In this document: one piece after another, positions 13,390-27,654 of the stretch | Numbering within the stretch: position 1 is the first letter of the stretch | Layout: each line of letters starts with the position of its first letter | Assembly: GCA_963742735.1 (NCBI GenBank) | Contig: CAVUMN010000002.1 | Location: 64,001 to 128,000, forward strand | Length of the DNA: 64,000 nt | Origin: an uncultured Actinomycetes bacterium | GTDB taxonomy: Bacteria; Actinomycetota; UBA4738; JBBDTT01 | Reading direction: 5' to 3' | Notes under the pieces: generated by a model | Told to the model about the DNA's origin: nothing | The model's database searches: none | What the model saw: only the letters and a program-made list of their open reading frames with translations | Program-made: the position numbers and the translations under genes

Positions 13390-15830
13390 GCGGGGCCTGG
13401 CTGGCCCCGGTCGCGGCCGGGGCGTTCTGGGCCGGCATCCTTGCGGCGGCCGGGGCGGGGCTCCGGGGTGGCTGGGCGTGGGCCGCGCTGGTGGCGGGCT
13501 GCGCGATGACCTCGGCCGCGGCGCTGCTGGTCGTGTACTCCGGGCCGGACGGGGAGCCGCTGTTGCGCGGCGCCGGGTTGCTTCCGCCGGTCGAGGCCGA
13601 GGGGCATCGGGGACGGGTGCTGGGAGCGGTCCGCGGCGTCCCGGCGCCTCCCGGACCGCGCTCGTCGGTGGCGGCGTCCCTGTTGCTGGCGGTGGTCGGG
13701 ATGTCGCTGCTCGGGGCGGGGTGGTTCTCGGTGCGCGACTCGGCCTCGGGGCGGTCGGTCCTGGCGGGGATCGGCGGATACGTGCGGGCCGAGGGGGTGA
13801 TGTCGACCGACCCGCAGATCGGGCCGTTCGGGTGGTCGGCCCGGGCGCGCCTCGAGCGGGTGGCGTCGGACGCGGGAGCGTGGCGGGTCCACGAGCCCGT
13901 GTGGCTGCAGGGTCGCGGGCCGCCGCCGCCCGTCGAGCTGGGGGACCGGGTGCGGCTCTCCGGCGCGGCCGGCGAGATCCCCACGGGCGACTTCGGTGAG
14001 TACTTGCGTACGCAAGGAATCGCCGCGACGCTCCGCGTATCGGAGGTCGAGCGGACCGCTCCGCCGGCCAACCCGCTGCTTCGCGCGGCCAACGCGGTCC
14101 GCAACGCGCTGCGCCGGGCGGCGCTGGAGCTGTGGCCGGAGCGACGGGCCGGGCTGTTCCTCGGCCTCGCCCTGGGCGACACGTCTCGCCTGGATCCCGG
14201 GCTGGAGGAGGACTTCCGGGCCACCGGCCTCGGACACCTCCTCGCGGTGAGCGGCTCGAACGTGGCGATGTTCCTCGGCCCCATCCTGATGGTGGCGGGG
14301 GCGGCGCGCGCCGGGCGACGGACCCGGTTCGTGGTGGGGATCGGGTCCGTGGCGTTCTTCGCGCTGCTGACTCGGGCCGAGCCGTCGGTCCTGCGCGCCT
14401 CGGTCATGGCCGGGCTGGTCCTGGTCGGGGTCTTCCTCGGTCGGGCCCGGTCGACCCCGGCCGTGATGGGGACGGCCATCCTGATCCTGCTGGCGTTCGA
14501 TCCGCGGCTGGCGTCGGCACTCGGGTTCCAGCTGTCGGTGGCGGCGACGGCGGGGATGGTCGCGTTCGCCACGCCCATCGCCGACCGGATCCCCGGGCCG
14601 AGGGCGGTGGCGATCGCCACAGGGGCGACCCTCGGGGCGCAGGCGGCGGTGACCCCGCTCCTGTTGTTTCGGTTCCACGTCGTGCCCACCGTGGCGCTGC
14701 CGGCGAACGTGCTGGCGTTTCCCGCCGTCGCGCCGGCCATGCTGGTCGGCCTGGCGGCGGCGGGGCTGTGGCTCGTCTGGCCGCCGGCGGGGGAGGCCCT
14801 CGCCTCGGTCGCGAACATGCCGATGGCCTACCTCTCCGGCGTGGCCGACCGGATGGCGACGGCGCCGCTGCCCTCGCTGACCTCCGACGGGGGGCTGGAC
14901 GCGTTCGTCCTCGGGATGGCCGTCCTGGCCTGGCTCGCCTTCAGGGTGCATCGGGCTCGCCGGCCGCGGACGCGCGACCCGGGCCGGCGGCGGGGGATCG
15001 CGGCGGCGGTCGTCATGGCCGTGGCGCTGCCCGCGCTGGTGTGGGGCCGCGCGCTGCGGGCCGGGCCGCCGGGGTCGCTCGAGGTCGTCTTCTTCGACGT
15101 CGGGCAAGGCGACGCGGCCCTGGTCCGCTCGCCCCAGGGCGCCGCGGTGCTGATCGACGCAGGCCCCGAACCCGACCAGGTCGCGGCCGAGCTCGCCGCC
15201 GAGGGCGTCCACCGGCTCGACGTGGTGATCGCCACTCACGCTCACGCCGACCACGTCGCGGGATTCCCCGCGGTGCTTGCCCGGTTCCCCGTGGGGCTGA
15301 TGCTGGAGCCCGGATGCGGCGGCGAGTCGCCGGCGTACGAGGACCTGGTCCGCGCCCTGAGGGACGAGGAGATCACGCCGGCGCATCCACGGCCGGGCGA
15401 CGCCTACCGGGTGGCCGACCTGCGCATCGACGTCCTCGGCCCGCCGGCCTGCTTCCGGGGGACCGAGTCCGACGAGAACAACGACTCGATCGTCGTTCGG
15501 ATCTCGGCCGGCCCGGCGACCGTGCTGTTCACCGGCGACGTCGAGGAGCCCGCGCAGCTGGCGATCCTGGAGGCGGGGGTCGACGTCCGGGCCGCGGTCC
15601 TGAAGGTGCCGCACCACGGCGGCGGGACGTCCATGGACGAGTTCCTGCTCGAGGTGCACGCCGCGCTCGCCGTGGTCAGCGTCGGCGCCGGCAACGACTA
15701 CGGGCACCCGGTGGAGTCGGTGCTGGTGACCCTTCGCGCCGCGGGCGCCCAGGTGGTGCGCACCGACCAGGCCGGAGAGGTGGTGGTTCGGTTCGGCCCC
15801 GACGGGCCGTACGTAGAATCGCCTCCGTGA
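13386..15830 (+). CDS. comEC: ComEC/Rec2 DNA uptake channel
   Basis: GL.HLLAVSG.N, GFQLS, DVGQGD, HAHADH, LKVPHHG, N.YGHP. Confidence 0.93.
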   Translation: MSGAWLAPVAAGAFWAGILAAAGAGLRGGWAWAALVAGCAMTSAAALLVVYSGPDGEPLLRGAGLLPPVEAEGHRGRVLGAVRGVPAPPGPRSSVAASLLLAVVGMSLLGAGWFSVRDSASGRSVLAGIGGYVRAEGVMSTDPQIGPFGWSARARLERVASDAGAWRVHEPVWLQGRGPPPPVELGDRVRLSGAAGEIPTGDFGEYLRTQGIAATLRVSEVERTAPPANPLLRAANAVRNALRRAALELWPERRAGLFLGLALGDTSRLDPGLEEDFRATGLGHLLAVSGSNVAMFLGPILMVAGAARAGRRTRFVVGIGSVAFFALLTRAEPSVLRASVMAGLVLVGVFLGRARSTPAVMGTAILILLAFDPRLASALGFQLSVAATAGMVAFATPIADRIPGPRAVAIATGATLGAQAAVTPLLLFRFHVVPTVALPANVLAFPAVAPAMLVGLAAAGLWLVWPPAGEALASVANMPMAYLSGVADRMATAPLPSLTSDGGLDAFVLGMAVLAWLAFRVHRARRPRTRDPGRRRGIAAAVVMAVALPALVWGRALRAGPPGSLEVVFFDVGQGDAALVRSPQGAAVLIDAGPEPDQVAAELAAEGVHRLDVVIATHAHADHVAGFPAVLARFPVGLMLEPGCGGESPAYEDLVRALRDEEITPAHPRPGDAYRVADLRIDVLGPPACFRGTESDENNDSIVVRISAGPATVLFTGDVEEPAQLAILEAGVDVRAAVLKVPHHGGGTSMDEFLLEVHAALAVVSVGAGNDYGHPVESVLVTLRAAGAQVVRTDQAGEVVVRFGPDGPYVESPP

Positions 15831-16801
15831 CGGGCGCGCCGATCCGGCTGCTGTGGGGGGAGGACTCGTTCCTCGTCCGGGAGGCGGCGATCGAGGCCCT
15901 CGACGGCATCCAGCCCCGCGAGGTCGACGGCGCCGACTGGTCCGGCGGCGAGACGGCCGACCTGGCCACGCCCTCGCTGTTCGGCGAGCCGCGCGCCCTG
16001 CTGATCACGAACTGCCAGGACCTGACCGACGAGGGTCTCCGCGAGCTGCGGACGTACGTGCTCTCGCCCTCGCCCGACGCGACCCTGGTCGTCACCGGCC
16101 GGGGGATCAAGGCCGCGCCGCCGATCGCCAAGGACTTCGAGAAGGCCGGGTTCAAGCCCGAACGCATCGAGCTGGCCCGCAAGGAGCTCTCCGGCTGGCT
16201 GGTCAAGCGGGCCCGGGCCCGGGACATCCAGCTCCGCGCGCCGGCGGCGAACACCCTGGTCGAGCTGATCGGGGAGAGCCCGGCCGAGCTCGACCGCGCC
16301 GTGGACCAGATGGCGGCGGCGTTCCCCGGCCGGCCCATCGAGCCCGCGCTGGTCGAGCGCCAGTTCCGGGGGCTCGGCGACCACAAGACCTGGGAGGTGT
16401 GCGACAAGGCGTTCGGCGGCGACCTGTCGGGCGCGATCCGGGCGCTGCAGGCGATGCTCGCCGGTCGGGAGGAGCCGCTGGTGATCCTCGGCGGCATCGC
16501 CGCCCGGGTCCGCGACCTCCAGCGCGTCGCCGCGGTCCCCGCCGACGTGCAGCCGAAGGACGCCGCGCGGATGGCGGGCCTCCGGTTCGAGTGGCAGTTC
16601 AAGCGCTACCGCGACACCGCCCGCCGCCAGCCGCCCGGGGCGCTCGCGTCGCTGCACCTGGCCGTGGCCAACGCCGACCGCGCGTTGAAGAACGGCGCCG
16701 GCGGCGACGTGGTCCTGCCGATGCTCCTCGCCCGCATCGCCGGCGAGGTCCCCGCCGACGCCCCCATCGAGGTCGGCTCGGTCGCCCGCGCCCTTCGCTG
16801 A
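15827..16801 (+). CDS. holA: DNA polymerase III delta subunit
   Basis: LLWGED.FL, TPSLFG; position after comEC. Confidence 0.85.
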   Translation: MTGAPIRLLWGEDSFLVREAAIEALDGIQPREVDGADWSGGETADLATPSLFGEPRALLITNCQDLTDEGLRELRTYVLSPSPDATLVVTGRGIKAAPPIAKDFEKAGFKPERIELARKELSGWLVKRARARDIQLRAPAANTLVELIGESPAELDRAVDQMAAAFPGRPIEPALVERQFRGLGDHKTWEVCDKAFGGDLSGAIRALQAMLAGREEPLVILGGIAARVRDLQRVAAVPADVQPKDAARMAGLRFEWQFKRYRDTARRQPPGALASLHLAVANADRALKNGAGGDVVLPMLLARIAGEVPADAPIEVGSVARALR

Positions 16802-16888
16802 GCCCGCCCGAGCCGGGTGTGAGGCGCGCCACGGTGTGGTCGGAATCCGGCGTCTAGAATCGCGCTCCCGAAAGGACGAGTACGCCCC

Positions 16889-17773
16889 ATGGCCCCAGCC
16901 CCGCCCGTCAGGATCGTCACGGACACCACCGGCTACCTGCCGCAGGAGCTGGTTACCGAGCATGGGATCGAGCTCGTCTCTCTCTACTACTCCTTCGACG
17001 GCGCCGAGTGGCTGAAGGAGGACGACGTCGTGGACGGCGACTGGGGGCCGTTCTACGAACGGCTCACCTCGTCCCCGGGTCTGCCCACCACGCGGCCGCC
17101 CGAGGTCGAGGACTTCCGCGCGGTCTACGAGCCGATCCTGGCGACCGGCGCCGGCATCGTCTCGCTCCACATCTCCTCGGGCCTCTCCGAGACCTGCGCG
17201 CACGCCCGCAAGGCCGGCGAGCAGCTCGCCGACGAGGGGCTGGGCGCGGAGCGCATCCTGGTCGTGGACGCCGCGTGCACGGGCGGCCAGCAGGGCTTGC
17301 TGGCGCTGGCGGCCGCGCGGGCGGCGGAGGGGGGCGCCGACGCCGAGGCGGTGGCCGACCACGTCCGGCGGGCCCGTCTGGAGGCCCGGAGCTGGTTCAC
17401 GCTGGACACCCTGGAGTTCCTCAAGCGCGGCGGACGGATCGGCGGCGGCGCGGCGTGGCTCGGCTCGACCCTGAGGATCAAGCCCATCCTGACCATCCAG
17501 TCCGAGGTCCACGCGGTTGAGCGCGTCCGAACCCGCGAGCGCGCCGTCGAGCGCCTCATCGAGTTCGGCCGCGAGCTGCACGCCGGCGGCGCCGACGGGT
17601 ACTGCGTACAGCACGCTCGCTGCGAGCCGGAGGCCCGCCACGTCGTCGACCGGCTTTCGGAGGTCTACGAGCGCCCGCCCGTGTTCGTGGGGGAGATGGG
17701 CCCGGTCCTGGGGACCCATGGCGGGCCGGGGTTCCTGGGCGTCGCCGGGTTACCATCCGGCTTCCTCGAGTAG
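16889..17773 (+). CDS. DegV family lipid-binding protein (copy 1)
   Basis: IVTDTT.YLP, LEFLKRGGRIG, IKPIL, GTHGGPG. Confidence 0.9.
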   Translation: MAPAPPVRIVTDTTGYLPQELVTEHGIELVSLYYSFDGAEWLKEDDVVDGDWGPFYERLTSSPGLPTTRPPEVEDFRAVYEPILATGAGIVSLHISSGLSETCAHARKAGEQLADEGLGAERILVVDAACTGGQQGLLALAAARAAEGGADAEAVADHVRRARLEARSWFTLDTLEFLKRGGRIGGGAAWLGSTLRIKPILTIQSEVHAVERVRTRERAVERLIEFGRELHAGGADGYCVQHARCEPEARHVVDRLSEVYERPPVFVGEMGPVLGTHGGPGFLGVAGLPSGFLE

Positions 17774-17792
17774 CCATGGAGAGCCCCAAGCC

Positions 17793-18671
17793 ATGACGAC
17801 GCCGGTCACGGTGGTCACCGACACCACGGCCTACCTGCCGCGCGAGACGGTGGACAAGCACGGCCTGCGCGTGATCTCCCTCTACTACTCGTTCGGCAAC
17901 GACGAGTGGATCAAGGAGAGCGACCACGACGGCGGCGACTGGGGATCGTTCTACGAGCGCCTGTCGAGCTCCGACACCCTCCCCACCACCCAGCCCCCCA
18001 CGGTCGAGGACTTCCGTGCGGTCTACGAGCCCCTCCTGGCGGAGGGCGGAAGCGTGGTCTCGATCCACCTGTCGTCGGTGCTGTCGGAGACGTGCGCCAA
18101 CGCCCGCAAGGCGGTGGAGGAGCTCACCGAGGCCAGCCGGGGCGGGGACCGAGTCCGGGTGATCGACTCGGCGAGCACCGCGGTCCAGGAAGGGCTGTTG
18201 GCCCTGGCCGCGGCGCATGCCGCCGGGGAGGGCAAGGACGCGGACTCGGTCACGGAGGTGATCCGGTCCGCGCGGGCCGAGGCCAAGAACTGGTTCGTGC
18301 TCGACACCCTGGAGTACCTGAAGCGCGGCGGCCGGATCGGCGGCGCGACGGCGTGGATGGGGTCGGCGCTGCAGGTGAAGCCGGTCTTGACCCTCGAGTC
18401 GGGGATCCGCGCGGTGGAGCGCGTTCGGACGGCCGACAAGGCGTTCGTGCGCCTGGTCGAGTACGGCCACCAGCTCCACGGCGCCGGGGCCGACGCGTGG
18501 GCCGTGCAGCACTCCCGGCGGGAGGACGACGCCCGCAAGCTGATCGACCGCCTCTCCCACGTGTTCGGCCGCGCGCCCGAGTTCGTCTCCGAGGTAGGCC
18601 CGGTCATCGGGACGCACGCCGGTCCGGGCGCGTTCGGCCTCGGTGGCATCCCCTCCAGGTTCCTCGGCTAG
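17793..18671 (+). CDS. DegV family lipid-binding protein (copy 2)
   Basis: VVTDTTAYLP, LEYLKRGGRIG, GTHAGPG. Confidence 0.9.
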   Translation: MTTPVTVVTDTTAYLPRETVDKHGLRVISLYYSFGNDEWIKESDHDGGDWGSFYERLSSSDTLPTTQPPTVEDFRAVYEPLLAEGGSVVSIHLSSVLSETCANARKAVEELTEASRGGDRVRVIDSASTAVQEGLLALAAAHAAGEGKDADSVTEVIRSARAEAKNWFVLDTLEYLKRGGRIGGATAWMGSALQVKPVLTLESGIRAVERVRTADKAFVRLVEYGHQLHGAGADAWAVQHSRREDDARKLIDRLSHVFGRAPEFVSEVGPVIGTHAGPGAFGLGGIPSRFLG

Positions 18672-18819
18672 CTCTCCAGAAAGAGACCAGGGTCACAGTG
18701 TGCTCAAGGTCGGTCACTCTTCCCGTTCCGTACGGGCAGGACTAGAATGTGCTTGGTTCGAAGTAACTAGTCACCCGACACAGGAGCGCCCCGATGATCG
18801 AGCCACGCGAGGTCCCATC

Positions 18820-19698
18820 GTGACCTCGCCCGTCACGGTCGTCACCGACAGCACGGCCTACCTCCCGCGCGAGCTCATCGCCAAGCACGGGATCGAGCTC
18901 ATCTCCCTGTACTACAGCTTCGACGGCGTCGAGTGGCTGAAGGAGGGCGACGTCGAGGGCGAGGACTGGGGCCCGTTCTACGATCGCCTGGTCGCGTCCG
19001 AGACGATGCCGACCACCCGGCCCCCGCACGTCGAGGACTTCCGCGCGCTGTACGAGCCGATCCTGGCCGAGGGGCGAAGCATCGTCTCGATCCATCTGTC
19101 CTCCGGGCTGTCCGAGACGTGCGACCACGCGCGCAAGGCCGTGGAGGAGCTCACCGAGGAGGGCCTCGGCGGGGAGCGGGTGCACGTGGTCGACTCGGCG
19201 AGCGCGTGCCTGCAGCAGGCTCTGCTCGTGCTGGTTGCCGCCCACGCCGCGGCCGAGGGAGGCGACCCCGACACGGTCTTCGACCAGGTCCGCCGGGCCC
19301 GGGTCGAGGCGCGCAACTGGTTCGCCCTCGACACGCTCGAGTTCCTGAAGCGCGGCGGCCGGGTCGGCGGCGCCGCGGCCTGGCTGGGCTCGACGCTGAA
19401 GATCAAGCCCATCCTGACCGTGGAGTCGGAGATCAAGGCCGTCGAACGGGTGCGAACCTCCGACCGCGCGTTCGAGCGCCTGATCGAGTGCGGGCGCCAG
19501 CTCCACGGCGCGGGCGCGGACGCCTACGTCGTCCAGCACGCCCGCGCGGGGAAGGAGGCGCAGGTCCTGAGCGAGCGGCTGCACGAGGTCTTCGGCAGGC
19601 CGCCGGTGATGATGTCTGAGGTCGGGCCGGTCATCGGCACGCACACGGGGCCGGGACTGCTCGGCGTGGGCGGACTCCCGTCCAGATTCCTGGAGTAG
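18820..19698 (+). CDS. DegV family lipid-binding protein (copy 3)
   Basis: VVTDSTAYLP, LEFLKRGGRVG, GTHTGPG; GTG start inferred from paralog alignment. Confidence 0.9.
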   Translation: MTSPVTVVTDSTAYLPRELIAKHGIELISLYYSFDGVEWLKEGDVEGEDWGPFYDRLVASETMPTTRPPHVEDFRALYEPILAEGRSIVSIHLSSGLSETCDHARKAVEELTEEGLGGERVHVVDSASACLQQALLVLVAAHAAAEGGDPDTVFDQVRRARVEARNWFALDTLEFLKRGGRVGGAAAWLGSTLKIKPILTVESEIKAVERVRTSDRAFERLIECGRQLHGAGADAYVVQHARAGKEAQVLSERLHEVFGRPPVMMSEVGPVIGTHTGPGLLGVGGLPSRFLE

Positions 19699-19702
19699 GG
19701 CG

Positions 19703-22700
19703 ATGAACGAGCTGAGCGCCTCCTCGAGCTCGTCGGTCCCCTGCCCGCGGTGCGGCCGCGGGAACCGGGACACGGCCAAGTTCTGCAAGGGATGCGGCCT
19801 GTCCTTCGCGCCGGAGATCACCTGCGTGAGCTGCGGCAGCAAGCTCGAGGCCGACGCCGTCTTCTGCGACGAGTGCGGCACCGCGGTCACGGCCTCCCAG
19901 CCGGCGGTGAAGGCCCCGGTCCGCGAGTCGGCTCGACTGCCGGAGACCTTTGGGGGCGGCCGCTACAAGGTCGTCCGGTTCCTGGGCGAGGGGGGACGCA
20001 AGCGGGTCTACCTGGCCGAGGACACCCGGCTGACCCGTGAGGTCGCCGTCAGCGTCTTCAAGGCCGAGGGGGTGGACGAGACGGCGCTGATTCGCGCCCG
20101 GCGCGAGGCCGAGGCGATGGGCAAGCTCGGCGACCATCCCAACATCGTCACGATCTACGACTTCGGCGAGGAGGACGGCGGCTTGTTCCTCGTCAGTCAG
20201 TACATGTCGGGAGGCGACCTCTCGGGCATGCTCTCCCAGGCCCCGGACCGCCGGCTGGCGATCGCCGAGGTGGCGCGGATCTCCACGGAGATCGCCCGCG
20301 GCCTGGAGCACGCGCACGCGAACGGCGTGATCCACCGCGACCTCAAGCCCCAGAACGTGTGGCTGTCCCCGGACGGGACCGCCAAGCTCGGCGACTTCGG
20401 CCTGGCCCTCGCCGCCGACCGCTCCCGCCTGACCGTGGACGGGGCGATGGTCGGGACGGTCGCGTACATGCCGCCCGAGCAGGGTCTGGGCCGGCCGGCC
20501 GACGAGCGGTCGGACCTCTACTCCCTGGGCGCGGTGATGTACGAGCTGATCTGTGGGGTCCCGCCGTTCACCGGCGGGGACGCCGCGGCGATCATCTCCC
20601 AGCACGTCAGCACCGTTCCCGTCGGCCCCAGCTGGCACCGCTCCGACCTGCCCACCGCGCTCGAGCGGCTGGTGCTGAAGCTCCTGGCGAAGACCCCTGA
20701 TGAGCGGTTCCAGTCGGCCACCGAGACCCGCGAGGCACTCCAGGCCATCGAGTCGGCGTCGGGGGTCGCGCCGGCGCCCGCCGAAGGCACGGTCGCCCTC
20801 GAGCGTCTGACCGACGGCATCTTCCTTGGCCGGGAGTCCGAGATGAAGGAGCTTCGGGCGGCGCTCGACGAGTCGATCGCCGGTCGAGGGCACGTAACCC
20901 TCATTGCCGGCGACGCCGGGATCGGCAAGACGCGGCTGGCGACGGAGGTCAAGGCGTACGCCGAGCTCCGGGGCGCCCGGGTGCTCTCCGGCCGCTGTCA
21001 CGCCGGCGAGGGCGCGCCGCCGTACTGGCCCTGGGTCCAGGTGATCCGCACGTACGTCCGCGAGCGCAAGGCCGAGGAGCTCCTGGCCGAGCTCGGCTCC
21101 GGCGCCACCGACATCGCCCAGGTCGTCTCCGACGTCCGGGCCTGCCTGCCCGACCTCCCCGAGCCGCAGGTCCTGGACCCCGACCAGGCCCGGTTCCGGC
21201 TGTTCGACGCCGTCACCACGTTCCTGCGCAACGCCTCGAGCACCGGCCCGCTGGCGATCTTCATCGAGGACCTGCACCGCGCGGACGAGCCCTCGCGCGA
21301 GCTGCTGGACTTCGTATCCCGGGAGCTCGGCGGCGCGCGGATCTTCCTGCTCGGCACCTATCGCGACACCGAGCTCGGCGAGGACCACGCGCTGAACGAG
21401 CTCCACGCCTCACTGTCCCGCGAGCGCAATTACTCGCGCCTGCGCCTCCGGGGCCTGAACGAGCGCGAGGTCAAGGCGCTCCTGGAGGACGTGTCCCGCC
21501 AGACCCTGGAGACCACCCAGGAGCTCGCGCTGGTCGACGCGGTCTTCCGCGAGTCCGACGGCAACCCGTTCTTCATCGAAGAGATCCTGCGGACGCTGCT
21601 CGAGTCGGAGGTCATCTACCTGCGCGAGGGCAAGTGGGTGAGCGACGCGACCCACATGAGCGACCTGTCGATCCCGAAGTCCATCCGCGAGCTCGTGGAA
21701 CAGCGCCTGGCCCGGCTGCCCGAGGAGAGCCGGGAGCTCCTGTCGATCGCGTCGGTCATCGGCTACGAGTTCGACATGCAGACCCTGGAGACGGTGGCCG
21801 GCATCCCCGTGGCCTCGGTGTTCGACCGGGTGCGGGCGGCCGTGGACGCCGCCATCGTCTCGCCGGTCCCCGACGAGCCCAACCGGTACCGGTTCGCGTA
21901 CGGCGCCACGCGCGACGCGCTCTACGAGGAGCTTCCCGAGTCCCGCCGCTTCGAGCTGCACCGGGCCATCGGCGAGGCCCTCGAGGAGATGTACGACGAC
22001 CGCATCGAGTCCCACTTGGCCGAGCTGGCCCACCACTTCGCGCTCGCCGCCCCGCTCGGCCTGGCCGGCAAGGCCGCCGACTACTCGTGGTGGGCCGGCG
22101 AGCGAGCCGCCACGCTGGCCGCCCACGAGGAAGCGGTCCTGCACTTCACCCGGACCATCCAGCTGTTCGACACCTTGACCGAGGAGGAGCCCACCCGGCG
22201 GTGCGAGCTGCTCATCGTCCTCGGCGAGTCGCGGTGGCGGGCCGGGGACGTGCGGGGGGCGAAGGAGACGTTCCTCAAGGCTGCCGAGGCCGCCGAGAAG
22301 CACGCGCTGCGCGACCAGTACGCGCGGGCGGCGCTCGGCTTCGCCGGCGGGCCCGGCGGGTTCTCCGCCGCCGACAAGCCGGACGACCAGCTGGTCGAGC
22401 TGCTGCGCACGGCGCTCCGCGGCCTGTCCGAGCGCGACAGCCTGCTGCGCGTGCGGCTGCTGGCGCGCCTGTCCCTCGAGATGCGCCTGACCACCGACGC
22501 CGTGGAGCCGGACAAGCTCTCCCGCGAGGCGCTGGAGATGGCCGAGCGGCTGGGCGACGCGCGGATCACGCTGCTGGCGATGTACAGCCGCCAGTGGGCG
22601 ACGATGGGGCCCGACGGGCTCGAGGACGATCTGACCGCCGGCGAGGAGATCGTCCGGCTGGCCCGGGTGGTCGGCGACAAGGAGATGGACTTCCACGGCC

Positions 22701-24214
22701 ATCACCTCCGGATCCACGGGTTCCTCGCCCTGGGCGACATGGTCTCGGTCGACCGCGAGATCCGCAGCTGCGAGAAGCTGGCCCGCGAGCTGCGCCAGCC
22801 GTACTACGAGTGGCACGTGGCGGTGTTCAGGGTGATGCGGGCTCTCATGCAGGGACGGTTCGACGAGGCCGGCCGGCTGGCGAGCTCCGCGGCGGCGATC
22901 GGTGCGCGAAGCCAGCCGGAGATCGCCACCACCGTGTTCGGCGTGCACGCCCTGCTCGGGAGCCTCCACACCAACTCGATGGCCGACCTGGTCCCGGGGG
23001 GCGAGCTCTTCGCCACGAACTATCCCCACTCGGCGTGGCCCTCGGCCTACGCCTGGATTCTCACCGAGGTCGGGGAGAACGCCAAGGCCCGCCCGGTGTT
23101 CGACGGCGTGGCCCGTGACCGTTTCGCCGGCCTGCGCCGGGACTCGAATTGGCTGACCGCCATGACGTGCGGCTCCCTGGCGTGTAGCGCCCTCGGCGAC
23201 GAGGAGGCGGCCGCCGTCATGTACGAGCTGCTCTCGCCCTACGCCGACTACTGCACGTCGATCCTGACCGCCGCGGCGTTCGTGGGCTCGATCCATATGT
23301 ACCTGGGGTTCCTGGCCGAGACCATGCGCCACCTGGACACCGCGATCGACCACTTCCAGAAGGGCATCGAGGTGAACGAGCGGATCGGCGCGTACCTCCT
23401 GGTTCCGCGGACCTACTTCGGTCTGGCGAGGGCCCTGCTCGCCCGGGACGGGGCCGGCGACCGGGAGCGCGCGTCGCAGGCCATCGAGAAGGGGCTGGAT
23501 CGAGCCCGCGAGGTGCAGATGCCGGGCGAGGTCGAGCGCCTGCTGGGGCTGAAGCTCGGCGGGCAGGGGATCACCTCGATCGACACACAGGCGTCGATCT
23601 ACCTGGTGGCGAAGTCGGTGGAGCAGGCCCGGCCCGACCTCACCCGCGCCGTCGCGCCGGACGGGACCGTGACGATCATGTTCTCCGACATCGAGGACTC
23701 AACGGTTCTCACCGAGCGGCTCGGAGACCGGCAGTGGCTGGAACTCCTGGAGGGGCACAACCAGATCATCCGCGAGAACTGCGCGAAGCATGACGGCTAC
23801 ACGGTCAAGTCGCAGGGCGACGGCTTCATGCTCGCCTTCGCCAGCGCCCGCAAGGCCATCCACTGTGCGATCGACGTGCAGCGGGCGATGGCGGAGCACC
23901 GCGGTGCGCACCCCGAGGCGCCCCTCAAGGTCCGCATCGGGCTGCACACCGGCGAAACGCTTCGCTCCGAGGAGGACTTCTTCGGCAAGAACGTTATCCT
24001 CGCCGCTCGGATAGCCGCCCAGGCGACCGGGGACCAGATCCTGGTGTCGTGGCTGCTCCGCGAGCTCGTGTCGAGCACCGGTGAGTTCGGGTTCGGCAAC
24101 GAACGCGAGCTGGAGCTGAAGGGCCTCTCCGGCAGCTATCGAGTCTTCGAGGTCCAGTGGGATGGCGCTACCGCGCCGGGAGCCGCACCTGCAGTGAGCT
24201 CACCTCGATCCTGA
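19703..24214 (+). CDS. Multidomain signalling protein: double Zn ribbon + Ser/Thr kinase + AAA/STAND-type ATPase + helical repeats + class III nucleotidyl cyclase
   Basis: 4x CxxC; HRDLKPQN, DFG; Walker A GDAGIGKT, Walker B IFIEDLH, GNPFF; FSDIEDST, GDGF, RIGLHTGE. Confidence 0.9.
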   Translation: MNELSASSSSSVPCPRCGRGNRDTAKFCKGCGLSFAPEITCVSCGSKLEADAVFCDECGTAVTASQPAVKAPVRESARLPETFGGGRYKVVRFLGEGGRKRVYLAEDTRLTREVAVSVFKAEGVDETALIRARREAEAMGKLGDHPNIVTIYDFGEEDGGLFLVSQYMSGGDLSGMLSQAPDRRLAIAEVARISTEIARGLEHAHANGVIHRDLKPQNVWLSPDGTAKLGDFGLALAADRSRLTVDGAMVGTVAYMPPEQGLGRPADERSDLYSLGAVMYELICGVPPFTGGDAAAIISQHVSTVPVGPSWHRSDLPTALERLVLKLLAKTPDERFQSATETREALQAIESASGVAPAPAEGTVALERLTDGIFLGRESEMKELRAALDESIAGRGHVTLIAGDAGIGKTRLATEVKAYAELRGARVLSGRCHAGEGAPPYWPWVQVIRTYVRERKAEELLAELGSGATDIAQVVSDVRACLPDLPEPQVLDPDQARFRLFDAVTTFLRNASSTGPLAIFIEDLHRADEPSRELLDFVSRELGGARIFLLGTYRDTELGEDHALNELHASLSRERNYSRLRLRGLNEREVKALLEDVSRQTLETTQELALVDAVFRESDGNPFFIEEILRTLLESEVIYLREGKWVSDATHMSDLSIPKSIRELVEQRLARLPEESRELLSIASVIGYEFDMQTLETVAGIPVASVFDRVRAAVDAAIVSPVPDEPNRYRFAYGATRDALYEELPESRRFELHRAIGEALEEMYDDRIESHLAELAHHFALAAPLGLAGKAADYSWWAGERAATLAAHEEAVLHFTRTIQLFDTLTEEEPTRRCELLIVLGESRWRAGDVRGAKETFLKAAEAAEKHALRDQYARAALGFAGGPGGFSAADKPDDQLVELLRTALRGLSERDSLLRVRLLARLSLEMRLTTDAVEPDKLSREALEMAERLGDARITLLAMYSRQWATMGPDGLEDDLTAGEEIVRLARVVGDKEMDFHGHHLRIHGFLALGDMVSVDREIRSCEKLARELRQPYYEWHVAVFRVMRALMQGRFDEAGRLASSAAAIGARSQPEIATTVFGVHALLGSLHTNSMADLVPGGELFATNYPHSAWPSAYAWILTEVGENAKARPVFDGVARDRFAGLRRDSNWLTAMTCGSLACSALGDEEAAAVMYELLSPYADYCTSILTAAAFVGSIHMYLGFLAETMRHLDTAIDHFQKGIEVNERIGAYLLVPRTYFGLARALLARDGAGDRERASQAIEKGLDRAREVQMPGEVERLLGLKLGGQGITSIDTQASIYLVAKSVEQARPDLTRAVAPDGTVTIMFSDIEDSTVLTERLGDRQWLELLEGHNQIIRENCAKHDGYTVKSQGDGFMLAFASARKAIHCAIDVQRAMAEHRGAHPEAPLKVRIGLHTGETLRSEEDFFGKNVILAARIAAQATGDQILVSWLLRELVSSTGEFGFGNERELELKGLSGSYRVFEVQWDGATAPGAAPAVSSPRS

Positions 24215-25976
24215 ACCAGCCGTTCGACGGGCGCGCGTAGGGCGCGTCCGCGCCGACGAGCTCGAGCACGGCCGAGTTACCTTTCGCGAAGCGCCAGGCT
24301 CCGGGGTGCAGCCACCACGCGTTCGGACCATTCGCCGGGCGGTACGTACCCCGCGCGACCAAACGCTGCGACCCACCTCCCGGGGCGACGTCCCACAGGC
24401 GCGCGACGAGCTGGGCGTGCTCGGCCGGGACGCCGGTGACCGTCAGGTCGGCGGTGAGCCGTGGCGCACCGATCAGCGTCCACGCCGGGGCGCCCTCCTC
24501 CTTGATCACGTAGCGCGCGGTGCCGGGGGCGGTCTCGGCCGGCGTCTCGGCACAGACCGTCCCGGTCGCGGGGTCGATGGCCAGGGCCACGCGGGGGTCG
24601 CCGCTCCCCGAGACGACCGTCCGGGACCCGGTCGTCGCGAACACCACCTGCCGGCGGGCCAGGGCCGCGAACGTCGGGGCGACGTACGGCCCGAGGCTGG
24701 GCTCCGTCGCCGGACAGGTGACCACATAGGCCGTCACCCCCAGCCGCGGCGAGCCCTCGCCCTTCAGGTAGCGGTCGAACCAGCCGTGGATCCGCGCCAG
24801 CAGCTCGGCCCGCTCAACCGGCTTCTGCGCCGAGCGCTGGTGGCCGAAGTCGCCGAAGAAGAGCGACAGCGGCACCTTTGGATACATCCGGCGCATGCGG
24901 TTCGCGAAGCGCAGGGCCTCGTCCACCGGGAACAGGTCGTCGGTGAAGCCCGAGGCGATGAAGAGCGGGGGTGGGGGGCGGCTCGGGTCGATGAAGTACG
25001 CGGAGTGGTAGTCGCGTGCCACGCGAACGATGTCCGTCGCGACGGGGTCGGTGTACGGCTCGCCCAGGTCGATGCGCGCCACCGACCGCTGGATCTCGGC
25101 CTCCGGGTCGGTCCCCGGCAGGGCCAGGAAGCCCATCGGGCGGCCCGGGATGAACGGCTCGCCCACCGGCTGGCCGGGACCGATCGCGTTCTGGGCCGCG
25201 AGGAGGATCCCGTTCACGAACGATCCCTTCGGCACACCGATCGGGGAGTGGGCGACGGCGGCGCCGGTGACGCCGGTCGGTGAGACGCGCCCGTTCGGGG
25301 CGGCGGCGGTGACCAGGTCGCTCCACGGGATCACCGGCGCGGCCGCCGCGATCCGTAGGGGCCGGCCCGCCGGGCTCCGCCACGGGACCAGGCGGCCGTC
25401 CGGCAGCATGACCCGGTCCCGCAACGCGGCCAGCATCAGCGTCTGCCCGCCGCCGTAGGAGTCGGCGGTCACGCCGATCCGGCCCGCGGCGGCCACGCCC
25501 TCGTCCACCAGGCGGCCGATCAGGTGCTGCGCGTCCCGCACCTCGTAGCGGACGTCCGCCAGGTGGAGGTACCCGCCCAGGCAGGCCTCGGGGCTCGCCG
25601 CGCGCGACTCGGGCGTGCCGCACGACCCCCACAGCCCGCGCGCGGTGAACGTGAGGACCGCGTATCCCTCCCGGGCCCACGCGTAGGCGTTGTCGGTGTA
25701 CGCGGTGGAGGCCGGGTCCAGGTACTCGTGCTTCGAGTTGCCGAAGCCGTTGAGCTCGACGACCAGGGGAAGGTCGCGGGCGCCCTCGGCGGGCAGCGTC
25801 ACGGTCGTGTCGAGGGGCACGCCGTCCCACGTCTCGGCCAGCCCCGAGCACAGGTACACGCCCTCCGCCGGCCCGCAGTCGGTCAGCCCCAGCGGGGGTG
25901 CGGACGCGGTGGCGGTGCCGGCCGGCATCCCCAGCACGAGCGAGACGGCCAGCGCGAGTGGGCGGGCTCGACGCAA
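24168..25976 (-). CDS. Secreted CocE/NonD-like (S15) hydrolase
   Basis: Signal peptide, RG.WGSCG, DSYGG nucleophile; TTG start inferred; overlaps the kinase 3' end by 47 bp. Confidence 0.75.
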   Translation of the reverse strand: MRRARPLALAVSLVLGMPAGTATASAPPLGLTDCGPAEGVYLCSGLAETWDGVPLDTTVTLPAEGARDLPLVVELNGFGNSKHEYLDPASTAYTDNAYAWAREGYAVLTFTARGLWGSCGTPESRAASPEACLGGYLHLADVRYEVRDAQHLIGRLVDEGVAAAGRIGVTADSYGGGQTLMLAALRDRVMLPDGRLVPWRSPAGRPLRIAAAAPVIPWSDLVTAAAPNGRVSPTGVTGAAVAHSPIGVPKGSFVNGILLAAQNAIGPGQPVGEPFIPGRPMGFLALPGTDPEAEIQRSVARIDLGEPYTDPVATDIVRVARDYHSAYFIDPSRPPPPLFIASGFTDDLFPVDEALRFANRMRRMYPKVPLSLFFGDFGHQRSAQKPVERAELLARIHGWFDRYLKGEGSPRLGVTAYVVTCPATEPSLGPYVAPTFAALARRQVVFATTGSRTVVSGSGDPRVALAIDPATGTVCAETPAETAPGTARYVIKEEGAPAWTLIGAPRLTADLTVTGVPAEHAQLVARLWDVAPGGGSQRLVARGTYRPANGPNAWWLHPGAWRFAKGNSAVLELVGADAPYARPSNGWFRIEVSSLQVRLPAR

Positions 25977-26112
25977 GGAGAGGATTGTGACGCGTTGGCG
26001 GGGGTTGCGGAAATGGGCACCTTGACCGGCGTTCGCCCCAGTGATTGGGTAATCGTCAGATTTGTCCAACTGAGCTGGACTGCGCTCCGCGGTCCCGAGG
26101 GGAGAAGGCACC

Positions 26113-27654
26113 ATGCGTGCTCGGTCGATCGCTCTGCTCAGCATCCTGACCATTGTCGCAAGCATGTTCGGCATCACCACGGCGACGGCCGGCGGGCCGA
26201 TCACGATCATGGTCGACGACGACGGCATGGCCGTCCCGGGGAACTGTGGGTCCACGACGGTGACCCACGACACCATCCAGGAAGCGGTGGACGCGGCGCT
26301 GGCCGGGGACACCATCAGCGTCTGCCCGGGGGACTACCCCGACCCGGTCAACGTGGACAAGACCCTGGAGATCCTGGGTGCCCAGGCCGGGGTCGACGCC
26401 CGCACCCGGCCGGGGACGCTCTCCTTGGAATCCGCCGTGGGGCCGGAAGGTGAGAGCTTGCTGGGATTCTTCGTCACGGCCCCGAACGTGGTCATCTCCG
26501 GGTTCATGTTCATCGGCTGGTCCGACGCCGTCAGGAGCACCTCGGAGGCCGCGAGCCTCCGGGTCCTCGACAGCATCTTCTCCGAGAACTTCGCCGGTCT
26601 CCGGATCCAGTCGAACAACAGCCTGGCCCGTCGGAACCTGTTCGCCGACAACTTCGTCGGCATCCTGATGTTGGGCGGGACGAAGGCCCTCTTCACGCTG
26701 AACGACTTCCTGGGCAACGACGTCGGGATCGACCTCGAGGGGGACACGGACGACTTCACCGGTCAGGGAGAGCCGCCTCCCATCAATCCCTTCCCGACGG
26801 ACGTCCGGATCCTGCGGAACGAATTCCTGGGCCCCGATCTGGGTCCCGGCGAGGTGGGGACCAACACCATCTCGCAGACCGTGGGGATCGAGGCCTCGAG
26901 CACGACCGGCCTGATCATCACGGAGAACACCATCTCCGAGGTCCTGATCGGGATATGGCTCGCCGGAGGCACCGACGCGACGACCGTCGAGCTGAACGAC
27001 GTGAGCGCATTCGATGTGGACCTCCTCCTCGATGACGGCGGGCAGATCAGCACCACCGACGTCTGCTGTGCGCCGAACTCGAACGTGACGGTCAAGTCCA
27101 ATCGCCTCACGAACAGCGGCTCGGGCATCGCGATCTTCTCCCTGACCGGGTCCATGGTCGTGTCCCGCAACACCATCACGGGGAACAACGGCGGGATCTT
27201 CAACGACTCCGGCGCCCAGGTGAACGCGGCCGAGAACTGGTGGGGCGCCGCCTCCGGCCCCTCGGACTGGTCCACGGGGACCGGCGACCCGGTGTCGCCG
27301 GACGTTCGGTTCTTCCCGTGGTCCACGAACGCGACGTTCACGGCGTTCTCCAAGTGCAAGAACACGCCGACGGCCGCGAACCAGACCATCAACGGGACCA
27401 CCGGCAACGACATCCTGTGCGGCGGCGGCGGTCAGGACACCATCGACGGCAAGGCGGGTAACGACCTCATCCTGGGCGACGCCGGTAGCGACATCCTGAT
27501 GGGTGCGCTGGGCGCCGACGCCATTCTGGGCGGCCAGGGAGACGACACCCTCAACGGCAACGCCGGGTTCGATCACCTGCAGGGACAGTCCAACTCCGAC
27601 TCGTGTCTGGTCGGGGTGGACGGAGGACAGACGGCCACCTGCGAAGGACCCTGA
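26113..27654 (+). CDS. Secreted right-handed beta-helix protein with C-terminal RTX-like Ca-binding repeats (paralog 1)
   Basis: Signal peptide, TIQ.AVDAA..GDTI.VCPG.Y, NAAENWWG, G.xG.D.L nonapeptides. Confidence 0.8.
   Translation: MRARSIALLSILTIVASMFGITTATAGGPITIMVDDDGMAVPGNCGSTTVTHDTIQEAVDAALAGDTISVCPGDYPDPVNVDKTLEILGAQAGVDARTRPGTLSLESAVGPEGESLLGFFVTAPNVVISGFMFIGWSDAVRSTSEAASLRVLDSIFSENFAGLRIQSNNSLARRNLFADNFVGILMLGGTKALFTLNDFLGNDVGIDLEGDTDDFTGQGEPPPINPFPTDVRILRNEFLGPDLGPGEVGTNTISQTVGIEASSTTGLIITENTISEVLIGIWLAGGTDATTVELNDVSAFDVDLLLDDGGQISTTDVCCAPNSNVTVKSNRLTNSGSGIAIFSLTGSMVVSRNTITGNNGGIFNDSGAQVNAAENWWGAASGPSDWSTGTGDPVSPDVRFFPWSTNATFTAFSKCKNTPTAANQTINGTTGNDILCGGGGQDTIDGKAGNDLILGDAGSDILMGALGADAILGGQGDDTLNGNAGFDHLQGQSNSDSCLVGVDGGQTATCEGP

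Follow-up and report, generated by a model that had tools for sequence, protein, structure and literature searches.

To our knowledge, proteins of the DegV/FakB family have been described only as carriers that supply fatty acid kinase (Fak) with its substrate, and many extra DegV paralogues are present in Gram-positive bacteria. Two other protein groups come into consideration here, namely the STAND ATPases, which in their MalT-type members receive the input through the sensor and whose kinase-bearing representatives include M. tuberculosis PknK, and the class III cyclases, the catalytic domains of which must pair for activity. In S. suis FakB2 the fatty-acid carboxylate is held by T61, S93, R170 and H264, the R170A substitution abolishes Fak activity, and L181/L182 and R202 are located in the FakA-binding loops, where mutation abolishes FakA binding, as reported (PMC10848957). 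Among cyclases, Rv1625c is reported as a fatty-acid or lipid-regulated mycobacterial enzyme (PMC12505454), and cyclases of this type provide a precedent in mycobacteria for lipid control of cAMP synthesis.

The locus considered here lies in a stretch of DNA of 64,000 nucleotides, the whole of which is termed the window, and consists of three DegV genes and a gene for a large multidomain protein, termed the hub (Table 1). The sequence-only reading described three co-oriented DegV paralogues, the third ending 4 bp before the hub gene, and this arrangement stands: according to profile matches and translation all four genes are intact and placed on the same strand, and between the DegV3 stop codon, ending at 19698, and the hub ATG at 19703 there is a gap of 4 nt. 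DegV1 and DegV2 are separated by 19 nt and are 68% and 67% identical to DegV3, respectively. The N-terminus of DegV3 read from GTG 18820, MTSPVTVV, parallels the MTTPVTVV of DegV2, and an open reading frame at 17906-18745 was rejected as a gene, being in the wrong frame and without a family match. The spacer between DegV2 and DegV3 contains a second CTAGAAT (18742-18748), a near-palindrome GTAACTAGTCAC (18763-18774) and a 9-codon upstream ORF running from ATG 18794 to TGA 18823, the stop of which overlaps the DegV3 GTG start; an Rfam search of this spacer gave no match and its RNA fold z-score was only -2.1. A scan of 15500-26500 for consensus promoters found none, which leaves the -10-like box in front of DegV1 as a lead only.

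Table 1. Features of the DegV-hub locus; positions refer to the window, residues to the hub protein.
Feature	Position	Strand	Basis
CTAGAAT, -10-like box 28 nt 5' of DegV1, possible promoter after holA	16854..16860	+	sequence reading only
DegV1, hub-type DegV/FakB-like fatty-acid-binding protein, 294 aa	16889..17773	+	PF02645 E 2.8e-62, 211 bits; TIGR00762 235.7 bits
DegV2, hub-type DegV, 292 aa	17793..18671	+	PF02645 E 6.8e-66, 222.9 bits, scored on the longer frame 17517-18671; real start ATG 17793 by sequence reading and translation check
Spacer DegV2-DegV3, 148 nt	18672..18819	+	sequence reading
DegV3, hub-type DegV nearest the hub, 292 aa, GTG start	18820..19698	+	PF02645 E 2.4e-69, 234.2 bits; TIGR00762 250.8 bits; scored on frame 18643-19698; real start GTG 18820 by sequence reading and translation check
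Hub: double zinc ribbon, Ser/Thr kinase, STAND ATPase, TPR sensor, putative adenylyl-type class III cyclase, 1503 aa	19703..24214	+	Pfam domains
Double zinc ribbon DZR, residues 14-59	19742..19879	+	PF12773 E 5.7e-9; eight Cys invariant in alignments
Hanks-type Ser/Thr kinase, residues 88-337	19964..20713	+	PF00069 E 1.3e-46
STAND NTPase core AAA_16, residues 374-543	20822..21331	+	PF13191 E 7.6e-28; P-loop GDAGIGKT, Walker B IFIEDLH
Winged-helix/arm and TPR-type sensor superhelix, residues 600-1300	21500..23602	+	clade-specific conservation, AlphaFold model, fold match
Predicted DegV-docking patch, residues 765-990 (incl. W796, W797, R832, R911, 949-956)	21995..22672	+	complex prediction
Class III cyclase catalytic domain Guanylate_cyc, residues 1320-1476	23660..24130	+	PF00211 E 2.1e-20

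The three DegV proteins score over their full length above the curated cut-offs of the family, which are 27 bits for PF02645 (DegV1-3) and 99.7 bits for TIGR00762 (DegV1 and DegV3). By motif alignment rather than superposition, the residues reported to hold the carboxylate in FakB2 have equivalents T66, S95, R181 and H275 in all three, and across 31 DegVs of the same type these are kept in 31, 30, 29 and 27 cases, respectively; the equivalents of FakA-docking residues, L193 and R212, are kept in hub-type DegVs as well. The window contains no FakA/DAK2 gene, just as the earlier reading had it; the genome of the window (G000) encodes one FakA on another contig (G000:C3:558173-560227, with Dak2, FakA_M and FakA_C domains) that adjoins no DegV. 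Since FakA is encoded elsewhere in the genome, a Fak role is possible for hub-type DegVs, which may simply be FakBs.

The hub carries the P-loop, Walker B, winged-helix/arm and C-terminal repeat sensor of a MalT-like STAND protein. The motifs GDAGIGKT, EDLH and GNP, picked out in the sequence-only reading, are all present in it, the last in the form GNPFF, together with HRDLKPQN, DFG, FSDIEDST, KSQGDGFM and EDFFGKNVILAARIA. The kinase catalytic set (K120, H211-R212-D213, N218, D231-F232-G233) is complete and invariant in a 12-row alignment; with 26 rows K120 is nearly invariant and the rest fully so. The cyclase domain has D1329, K1369, D1373, D1425, N1430 and R1436, of which D1329, D1373, D1425 and R1436 are invariant in the alignment; we take their roles to be those of the two metal-binding Asp, the substrate-specifying Lys/Asp and the transition-state Asn/Arg, the Lys/Asp pair being presumably typical of adenylyl cyclases. 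Judged by its residues, the cyclase is probably of the adenylyl type, with cAMP as the putative product. TPR_MalT matches the hub only weakly at 899-1068 (27 bits, below the 45-bit cut-off); the AlphaFold model of residues 560-1300 (pLDDT 80.7) consists entirely of helical repeats and folds as a TPR superhelix, resembling protein-binding TPR scaffolds, and among known folds it comes closest to the STAND-TPR protein 6MFV (E 1.9e-7).

The sequence-only reading named as adverse the case that homologues of the large protein are unlinked to DegV elsewhere, and the opposite was found. Of 68 related genome loci, 8 have a co-oriented DegV gene immediately upstream, and it is these that encode the closest hub homologues. 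When 43 full-length homologues were placed in a tree, the 9 rows with a linked DegV, one of them the window, came out as a single clade with support 99, and none of the remaining 34 rows has a DegV. When Mycobacterium loci are added, 14 of the 15 clade loci, in 14 genomes and in differing genomic contexts, have one to five upstream DegVs, although some of the 14 genomes are closely related (L052/L217, L054/L213) and the independent lineages are fewer, about six. The pairing recurs in actinobacteria that are only distantly related. Within this family the full-length hubs are 46-68% identical, and the positions conserved specifically in the clade are concentrated not in the catalytic domains, but in the sensor (62 of 78 in residues 600-1300, 1 in the cyclase). 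The flanks of the DegV-hub loci differ from one another. The caveat that a single degV is often found near comEA/holA in actinobacteria does not apply to this DegV type, and no homologue of comEC, holA or leuS was seen in any of the 68 related loci.

The distribution of the two genes is patchy and shared. The hub occurs in 8 of 251 sampled Mycobacterium genomes and the hub-type DegV in the same 8 of 250, all 21 copies being placed at hub loci; 40 relatives of the same order have neither a full-length hub nor a hub-type DegV. Hub-type DegVs away from a hub are a pair in the window's genome and one in another genome (G426). The linked DegVs form a clade of their own, outside which the housekeeping DegV of these genomes falls: a hub-type profile gives at least 301 bits for 31 rows vs at most 152 bits for 6 other same-genome DegVs, the split has support 99, and the DegV topology mirrors the hub tree.

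A prediction of the complex with controls supports direct docking of DegV on the sensor domain. With hub residues 600-1300 and DegV3 the scores were 0.76, 0.78 and 0.78 (controls 0.00, 0.29 and 0.00), at least 91% of contacts were common to the runs and partner pLDDT was at least 88; of 157 solved complexes 116 reach the mark of the tool, as do 2 of 215 mismatched pairs, counts that are rough here, own alignments having been used, and a pass, by the tool's own statement, supports binding without showing it. A sequence comparison found no solved structure for the ATPase-sensor part, so that the tool is unlikely to have merely reproduced a known structure. DegV3 is placed on the first TPR repeats of the sensor. 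The predicted contact residues W796/W797 are WW in all 13 DegV-linked hubs aligned (the window and 12 others), RR in the sole clade hub without DegV (L216) and WW in 0 of 33 hubs of other clades, which makes the L216 hub, as far as its residues tell, a natural negative control for the putative docking. On the DegV side of the predicted interface, R161 is present in 31/31 hub-type vs 0/6 other DegVs, S203 in 31/31 hub-type proteins with Gly in 6/6 others, E163, E204 and E209 are further subfamily-specific residues, and conservation is 0.84 vs 0.72 for the rest of the protein. On the hub side the predicted interface coincides with clade-specific positions in 4 of 34 cases vs about 3 expected, that is, not above expectation, and K790, Y794, L836 and L986 of the patch are conserved also in clades without DegV, so that the patch may have some other, general role.

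The third partner at many of these loci is a lipase. A gene for a cNMP-binding patatin lipase adjoins the hub in 9 of the 15 clade loci, in three gene orders; a search of 60 non-clade loci for such genes gave no match. The lipases combine cNMP_binding and Patatin domains, in one case also NTE_Ploop, and are fused to MFS or FtsX-like membrane parts. In the window no such gene is adjacent to the hub, and the only one of the genome lies at G000:C4:1482763-1484499. A link of cNMP-patatin lipases to a cassette of DegV and a STAND-cyclase was not found in the literature searched.

We hold the chances to be evenly balanced that the locus is a conserved lipid-signalling cassette, in which a DegV subfamily acts as the fatty-acid-loaded co-sensor of the downstream STAND hub and gates its kinase and cAMP output. 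The observed basis is the gene order, its conservation and the co-phylogeny, the shared phyletic distribution, the intact motifs and an interface prediction that stands up to its controls, from which we infer that DegV binds the hub and that the signal runs in this direction. Each DegV would hold its ligand, presumably a fatty acid, in the usual tunnel, which retains the Thr, Ser, Arg and His that bind the carboxylate, and would dock through its FakA-facing side, near the tunnel entrance, onto the first TPR repeats of the sensor. The lipid loading of DegV, or the kind of lipid, may then set the switch-on and oligomerisation of the STAND ATPase, and oligomerisation would pair the C-terminal cyclase domains to yield cAMP and allow the N-terminal kinase domains to phosphorylate one another as well as their targets. 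In most relatives the neighbouring transporter-fused lipase probably reads cAMP and, once triggered, would release fatty acids, thus closing a loop; in the window's genome a lipase of this type lies away from the hub. A more far-reaching version, which we advance tentatively and rate as somewhat doubtful, is a soluble lipid-receptor pathway, likened to animal lipid chaperones that bring ligands to receptors: DegVs would deliver individual fatty-acid species to the TPR sensor and the switch would translate the make-up of the pool of free fatty acids into cAMP and protein phosphorylation, the cAMP-gated lipase would close this into a homeostatic loop governing the turnover of membrane lipids, and the arrays of one to five paralogues would be ligand-specific inputs competing with FakA for the docking face. 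No description of the DegV-hub pairing was found in the literature searched, and the pairing looks like an undescribed bacterial route from lipid status to signal.

The opposite direction has DegV as the output: the hub would sense something else and phosphorylate the DegVs, or hold them on its TPR repeats against FakA, and tune the amount and kind of fatty acid entering phospholipid synthesis. We regard this as unlikely, although the FakA-docking and ligand residues kept in hub-type DegVs, the FakA of the genome and the intact hub kinase are in line with it, and another DegV of the window's genome and one in an Acidimicrobiales genome adjoin a Ser/Thr kinase. By motif alignment the predicted docking face, around the tunnel entrance, also coincides with the FakA-binding loops reported for FakB2 (L181/L182 and R202; PMC10848957). 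The clade-specific change, however, is concentrated in the sensor, the input side of STAND proteins, and the single M. gastri-type DegV has R181K and H275N, at positions where Arg and His are needed for Fak activity, yet is retained beside its hub, which is more in keeping with a regulatory subunit than with a Fak client.

Physical contact would be dispensable in a co-regulated lipid-salvage operon, where the patatin lipase is activated by cAMP from the hub and the freed fatty acids pass through the DegVs to FakA for re-use. The lipase adjoining the hub at 9/15 loci, the canonical ligand residues of the DegVs and the presence of FakA and a DegV-plsY gene pair in the genome agree with such an operon, but it leaves unexplained the change of WW to RR in the only DegV-less clade hub, the hub-type-specific surface residues of DegV with the passing complex prediction, and the loci, the window included, that have DegV and hub without a lipase; we consider it distinctly unlikely. 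Very improbable in our estimate is an anti-phage abortive infection system of the Pycsar/CBASS kind, in which the STAND sensor fires the cyclase and the cyclic nucleotide activates a membrane-destroying cNMP-binding phospholipase. The patchy, transfer-like distribution and an integrase fragment near one locus (L049) would suit it, and the lipases match Pycsar effector and cyclase models over the cNMP-binding region (PycTIR, E 3.7e-15 to 3e-27) and, weakly, CBASS-type phospholipase effector models (about E 6e-6). Against it, DegV matches no defence model, the best 25 of the 35 PADLOC hits of the hub all fall on the kinase domain and none on the ATPase or cyclase, the cyclase is closest to Ma1120 and keeps the Lys/Asp pair presumably typical of adenylyl cyclases, no effector lies beside the window copy, and we know of no role for fatty-acid-binding proteins, here one to five, in systems of this type. 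Chance adjacency in a cyclase-crowded genome, 3.08 Mb with 44 class III cyclase matches (42 over the cut-off) and 7 DegV matches, is contradicted by conserved adjacency, co-phylogeny and phyletic co-occurrence, and because of these comparative data its probability is negligible and the adjacency is not due to chance.

The DegV-hub cassette offers a concrete case of DegV as a candidate signalling subunit with a predicted interface, and it comes with diagnostic residues, WW on the hub and R161, E163 and S203 on DegV, the RR hub serving as a presumed negative control. It joins free fatty acids, cAMP and Ser/Thr phosphorylation, which are usually separate topics, in actinobacteria including some non-tuberculous mycobacteria, and a lipid presented by a protein would become a possible input for STAND ATPases. 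Should the lipase loop prove true, bacteria would have a counterpart to the cNMP-regulated phospholipases of NTE type, one whose upstream signal is defined.

Compared with FakA/FakB of S. aureus and Streptococcus, the window DegVs belong to the same family, DegV3 having B. subtilis DegV (3FYS, E 6e-39) and S. aureus FakB1 as its closest solved relatives; they keep the Thr/Ser/Arg/His for the fatty-acid carboxylate, and several paralogues occur per genome, as with FakB1/2/3, which by analogy suggests differing fatty-acid preferences. Unlike FakB, they belong to a clade apart from the plsY-adjacent DegV and the housekeeping DegV of other genomes, remain below the 350-bit cut-off of the FakB1 equivalog NF038249 (122 bits for DegV1, 153.3 bits for DegV3), are tied to a STAND kinase-cyclase and not to FakA, and have conserved surface residues of their own. 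The recurrent third gene, with its cNMP_binding and Patatin domains, resembles NTE/PNPLA6/Swiss-cheese-type phospholipases and mycobacterial MFS-cNMP-patatin proteins, but in the window no such gene stands beside the hub. The clade loci likewise share with Pycsar/CBASS the logic of a cyclase with a cNMP-binding or patatin effector, from which the putative adenylyl type of the cyclase, a DegV foreign to defence models and, in the window, the lack of an adjacent effector set them apart. The best NCBIfam match of the hub is the TOMM system kinase/cyclase fusion (TIGR03903, E 1.5e-88), in which a Ser/Thr kinase and a class III cyclase are likewise combined with an AAA_16/TPR module; membership in that family was rejected (298 bits vs a cut-off of 705.75). 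Only the ATPase part aligns (hub 374-828 to profile 483-927), so that the domain order differs, and no TOMM genes were seen near the hub. With MalT/LAL-type STAND regulators and 6MFV the hub shares the AAA_16 P-loop NTPase, the winged-helix/arm with its GNP motif and the TPR-type sensor, and over the NOD region it shows 27% identity to a LuxR-type STAND encoded in the same genome, but it has two enzymatic outputs on one chain, the N-terminal kinase and the C-terminal cyclase, and the partner of its sensor is apparently a dedicated lipid-binding protein instead of a small-molecule inducer. The cyclase domain itself is a close relative of M. avium Ma1120 (4WP3, E 1.5e-52), the nearest solved structure; unlike in the lipid-regulated mycobacterial cyclases, the lipid would reach the hub not through a membrane anchor or a fused regulatory domain, but through a separate soluble DegV that presents it to the STAND sensor.

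The window, with 71% G+C, lies on contig 2 of a five-contig, 3.08-Mb actinobacterial genome, and the layout of its cassette had first been read from the sequence alone. Three co-oriented genes for DegV/FakB-like fatty-acid-binding proteins (DegV1-3), followed 4 nt past the DegV3 stop by the gene of a large multidomain protein (the hub) with the quoted GDAGIGKT, EDLH and GNP motifs, are borne out both by profile matches and by the sequence. Pfam DegV matches of DegV1-3 have E values of 1e-62 to 1e-69, TIGR00762 scores lie far over the cut-off, and pairwise identity among the three proteins is 67-68%. The hub additionally contains complete catalytic sets of kinase and cyclase, and these residues and the motifs are invariant or nearly so in homologue alignments; the nearest solved relative of its cyclase domain is Mycobacterium avium Ma1120 (4WP3, E 1.5e-52). 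The fatty acid kinase FakA, said in the sequence-only reading to be missing, is indeed absent from the window (0 copies), yet one copy is present on contig 3 of the same genome. An ORF at 17906-18745, taken from a mechanical list, is in the wrong frame and was rejected as a gene. Two neighbouring right-handed beta-helix (NosD-like) genes with RTX calcium-binding repeats are found 3' of the cassette (26113-29292).

Features of the cassette and its surroundings, with the predicted interface patches
Feature	Position	Remarks
leuS	10259-12691	5' of the DegV genes
comEC	12888-15830	between leuS and holA
holA	ends 16801	last gene before DegV1
CTAGAAT box	16854-16860	before DegV1
DegV1	16889-17773	co-oriented with DegV2 and DegV3; Pfam DegV and TIGR00762
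DegV2	17793-18671	co-oriented with DegV1 and DegV3; Pfam DegV
DegV2-DegV3 spacer	from 18672	148 nt
CTAGAAT box	18742-18748	in the DegV3 spacer, identical to the box before DegV1
Near-palindrome GTAACTAGTCAC	18763-18774	in the DegV3 spacer
Upstream ORF	ATG 18794, TGA 18821-18823	9 codons, in the DegV3 spacer; stop overlaps the DegV3 GTG
DegV3	18820-19698	GTG start, co-oriented; Pfam DegV and TIGR00762
Hub	19703-24214	1503 aa
Hub double zinc ribbon	residues 14-59	
Hub Ser/Thr kinase	residues 88-337	
Hub AAA_16 STAND ATPase	residues 374-543	
Hub helical sensor		weak MalT-TPR match
Hub class III cyclase	residues 1320-1476	
S15/S9-type alpha/beta hydrolase	24168-26315	opposite strand, 3' of the hub
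Hub interface patch (predicted)	residues 765-804, 829-839, 911-914, 949-956, 986-990	
DegV interface patch (predicted)	residues 94-96, 125-127, 158-165, 186-193, 202-204, 209-216	

DegV3 and the hub may have a separate promoter or operator of their own, as candidate elements are present in the spacer before DegV3. A scan of the cassette region for promoter and terminator consensus sequences and an Rfam search of the leader gave no matches, and the RNA fold of the leader is unremarkable.

With cyclase-domain matches numbering 44, of which 42 exceed the cut-off, and seven DegV matches at four places in the genome, a chance adjacency of the two is plausible from numbers alone, and therefore comparative evidence is required. 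Proteins sharing the hub architecture over the full length were numerous in a protein search (46-68% identity) and have generic names only; their sources are MAGs of Thermoleophilia type, a number of species of Mycobacterium, and Dehalococcoidia. When one genome per species was scanned (68 loci, flanks up to 10 kb), local tblastn with DegV1-3 as queries matched a DegV in eight loci, in all of which the DegV shares the strand of the hub gene and stops a few bases 5' of it; these eight carry the closest hub homologues (53-57% identity, 46% for one Acidimicrobiales copy). In a tree of 43 near-full-length hub proteins, the nine DegV-linked rows, window included, form a single clade (SH-like support 99), the DegV label requires one change (equally low in 0 of 500 shuffles), and no DegV was matched in the flanks of the remaining 34 rows, for two of which the upstream flank is shorter than 1 kb. 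Homologues of leuS, comEC and holA are absent from all 68 loci, and the genes flanking the hub vary, so that the conserved unit is the DegV-hub pair and not the neighbourhood; the caveat that a degV is often found near comEA/holA does not account for the link.

The survey, which covered locus sets of up to 80 and genome samples of about 250-400, was extended in Mycobacterium, where the hub is present in 8 of 251 sampled genomes, at nine loci. Mycolicibacterium hodleri is one environmental carrier of the cassette. Seven further Mycobacterium loci, from six genomes, were added, one of them the same contig as L051. The combined set comprises 15 distinct clade loci in 14 genomes, and the linkage read from a single cassette recurs, as 14 of the 15 have one to five hub-type DegVs directly upstream of the hub. 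There is one DegV in L049 (plus a remnant), L050, L052, L054, L066, L105, L213 and L217, two in L215, three in the window and L051, and four in L107, L211 and L214, the last with one broken copy in addition. None is found in L216 (G788:C1), a second, paralogous hub copy in the genome that also has L215. Close relationship within the set of 14 genomes (L052/L217, L054/L213) reduces the number of independent lineages to about six.

The DegVs of these loci constitute a subfamily of their own. In each of five carrier genomes, the hub-linked DegV or DegVs are accompanied by exactly one other DegV elsewhere. Against a profile built from the DegVs of the window, 31 hub-type sequences (28 hub-adjacent, a tandem pair elsewhere in the window's genome and one in genome G426) score 301-599 bits vs 100-152 bits for six others, and the phylogeny separates the 31 from the six with support 99. 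The hub-type DegV tree mirrors that of the hub, with Acidimicrobiales basal, then the window, Thermoleophilia and mycobacteria. With a hub-type DegV from mycobacteria as the query (E ≤ 1e-50), 8 of 250 scored Mycobacterium genomes gave matches, precisely those that have the hub, and all 21 matches are at hub loci. Neither a full-length hub nor a hub-type DegV (E ≤ 1e-40) was found in 40 same-order relatives (0/40 each), and sensor-domain identity never exceeded 38% in 400 other genomes of the phylum; these negative counts take in genomes flagged as unpublished (G006, G014, G027, G030, G031, G039 and G085). In a family-level sample only 2 of 251 genomes were positive. Judged by the sampled sequences, the DegV-linked hub clade is rare. 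Its phyletic pattern and the presence of an integrase fragment close to L049 suggest that the cassette was transferred horizontally as a unit. The plasmid search gave only one distant match (30% identity, Ralstonia megaplasmid) and no plasmid copy of the cassette.

Other DegV genes of the window's genome stand in different settings. The second hub-type pair (L218, G000:C4:246023-251099) lies 331 bp 3' of, and on the same strand as, the gene for a 955-aa AAA_16 and LuxR (GerE) STAND regulator, and makes up a further DegV-STAND neighbourhood, this one with DNA binding as its output; the link is not conserved, since in relatives of the same order no DegV lies within 1.5 kb at any of 24 loci homologous to that of the regulator. 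One DegV is directly 5' of plsY (L219, G000:C4:499958-501459), which encodes an acyltransferase using acyl-phosphate, and probably acts as the genome's housekeeping FakB. A non-hub-type DegV flanked by DUF6049/murJ and by the gene of a Ser/Thr kinase (L220, G000:C4:400845-403584) belongs to a second recurring DegV-kinase neighbourhood, the order DUF6049-DegV-x-kinase being repeated in an Acidimicrobiales genome (L207:1491-6799).

Outside the DegV-linked clade, other genes accompany the hub. In Solirubrobacterales a Zn_peptidase (PF04228) is often upstream and a conserved protein of ~830-857 aa downstream (L088, L089, L099, L101, L102, L103 and L114); the six copies scanned, i.e., all but that of L103, match no Pfam family, and this protein may be the clade's own partner. 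Another clade (L065, L092, L100) has a small LysM protein downstream. These observations fit a family in which the partner gene that a member works with depends on its clade. A metagenome scan keyed to a generic kinase motif recovered mostly unrelated kinases, with DegV in 0 of 78 loci; the short contigs L129 and L135, 52-57% identical to the hub N-terminus and not assignable to the DegV-linked clade, have no DegV upstream. On L129 (897-2971) the C-terminus of one hub homologue is directly followed by the N-terminus of another, i.e., the hubs are in tandem.

A cNMP-binding patatin phospholipase is encoded in 9 of the 15 clade loci, in three gene orders, and was matched in no non-clade locus. 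It is fused to an MFS transporter and placed upstream of the DegVs in L051, L052, L107, L211, L214 and L217, or divergent from the hub in L216; it is downstream of the hub in L050 (Conexibacteraceae) and, as a fusion of two cNMP domains with NTE_Ploop, patatin and FtsX, in L066 (Acidimicrobiales). In L105 the gene immediately 5' of the DegV is instead that of a serine esterase of PGAP1/DUF676 type, and the sole cNMP-patatin gene of the window's genome lies elsewhere (G000:C4:1482763-1484499). One of five DegV copies in L214 is interrupted by stop codons (L214:5153-5911) and the lipase gene of L051 (L051:3622-6910) can be read only in five pieces with frameshifts between them, perhaps through decay or faulty assembly. 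The cyclic-nucleotide signalling repertoire of the window's genome is unusually dense, with 16 cNMP-binding matches besides those of the cyclases.

How the DegV could meet the hub was approached through the hub sensor. Among 78 clade-specific hub positions (conserved in at least 8 of 9 DegV-linked hubs and rare in other clades), 62 fall within residues 600-1300, the arm and sensor, and only one in the cyclase; it is hence on the input side that the DegV-linked clade departs from its sister clades. AlphaFold models residues 560-1300 (pLDDT 80.7) as a superhelix of repeats that is helical throughout; the PDB fold closest to it is that of the STAND-TPR protein 6MFV, and TPR scaffolds that bind proteins rank next, with TM-scores of 0.26-0.44, low values that are usual for flexible solenoids. 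The proposed partnership gained from complex prediction, as hub residues 600-1300 and DegV3, each with its own alignment, scored 0.76, 0.78 and 0.78 vs 0.00, 0.29 and 0.00 for controls, with at least 91% of contacts in common between runs and partner pLDDT of at least 88. Among solved complexes the mark of the tool is attained by 116 of 157, against 2 of 215 among mismatched pairs; these counts are only rough here because own alignments were used. A PDB sequence search with the ATPase-sensor part gave no matches, and since no solved structure resembles it by sequence, a pass owed to memorised structures is unlikely. The prediction supports, short of proof, a binding of DegV3 to the hub sensor.

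Within the clade, conservation of the predicted hub patch is somewhat above that of the remaining sensor (0.79 vs 0.71), and the DegV patch is more conserved than the remainder of its protein (0.84 vs 0.72). Several hub patch residues are common to all hub clades, and clade-specific positions are not enriched in the interface (4/34 observed vs ~3 expected). W796 and W797 are present in 9 of 9 clade hubs and in none of the 33 other hubs, which have E/Q and R instead; the patch also includes R911 (Glu in most others), R832, I768, I955 and R988. In a 26-row clade alignment, to which L217, near-identical to L052, was not added, the WW pair is found in all 13 hubs with an upstream DegV, window included, and L216, the only DegV-less clade hub, has RR there and Pro for E769. 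This natural control is more telling than the clade-specific overlap. In two metagenomic hub proteins of unknown gene context the pair reads RL and WR.

On the DegV side, R161 is present in 31/31 hub-type proteins vs 0/6 others, S203 in 31/31 vs Gly in 6/6, and E163 is replaced by Arg in all six others; A127, E204 and E209 likewise separate the two groups. Acidic gains of the DegV face Arg gains of the hub in the predicted complex, where 202-204 contact 911-914. In the available text of a study on S. suis FakB2, mutation of L181/L182 and R202 abolishes FakA binding (PMC10848957). We infer, by motif alignment and not superposition, that the DegV patch takes in the equivalents of these residues; it also includes the Ser loop of the tunnel entrance as described in that text. 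The hub would accordingly hold the FakA-binding face of the DegV, a position from which it could either read the loaded tunnel or block it.

Equivalents of the carboxylate-binding residues are largely kept in hub-type DegVs (T66 31/31, S95 30/31, R181 29/31, H275 27/31). In cassettes of the M. gastri type, the only DegV (L052:9007-9876, L217:9546-10415) has Arg to Lys, His to Asn and TDS to TNS changes. As R170A kills Fak activity in S. suis, according to the same text (PMC10848957), this protein has probably lost Fak competence, and its retention beside the hub fits a regulatory subunit.

The most likely reading, to which an even chance may be given, is that the DegV is a fatty-acid-loaded co-sensor. 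Loaded DegV would gate the STAND switch of the hub, and the switch would turn on the hub kinase and, via dimerisation, which class III cyclases require, the hub cyclase; in most relatives the cAMP-binding patatin lipase would free fatty acids and close the loop. It is unlikely that the DegV is a client or substrate of the hub, competition with FakA included, and rather improbable that the genes form a co-regulated salvage operon whose products make no physical contact. A Pycsar/CBASS-like defence system is very doubtful: the lipase partners do match Pycsar effector and cyclase models across the cNMP-binding region, but the DegV matches no defence model and the best 25 of the hub's 35 matches are all on the kinase domain. 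That DegV and hub are neighbours by chance, although the genome is rich in both kinds of match, can be dismissed as extremely improbable.

The remark that no described system of this kind was known agrees with the full-text literature outside subscription journals, where no account of a DegV tied to a kinase, cyclase or STAND protein was found. The nearest item, as far as its available text goes, is a preprint on DegV as a characteristic heliorhodopsin neighbour, in which lipid remodelling is speculated (10.1101/2021.02.16.431466). The combination of parts in the cassette and its logic appear to be undescribed so far, while all the parts themselves are of known kinds.
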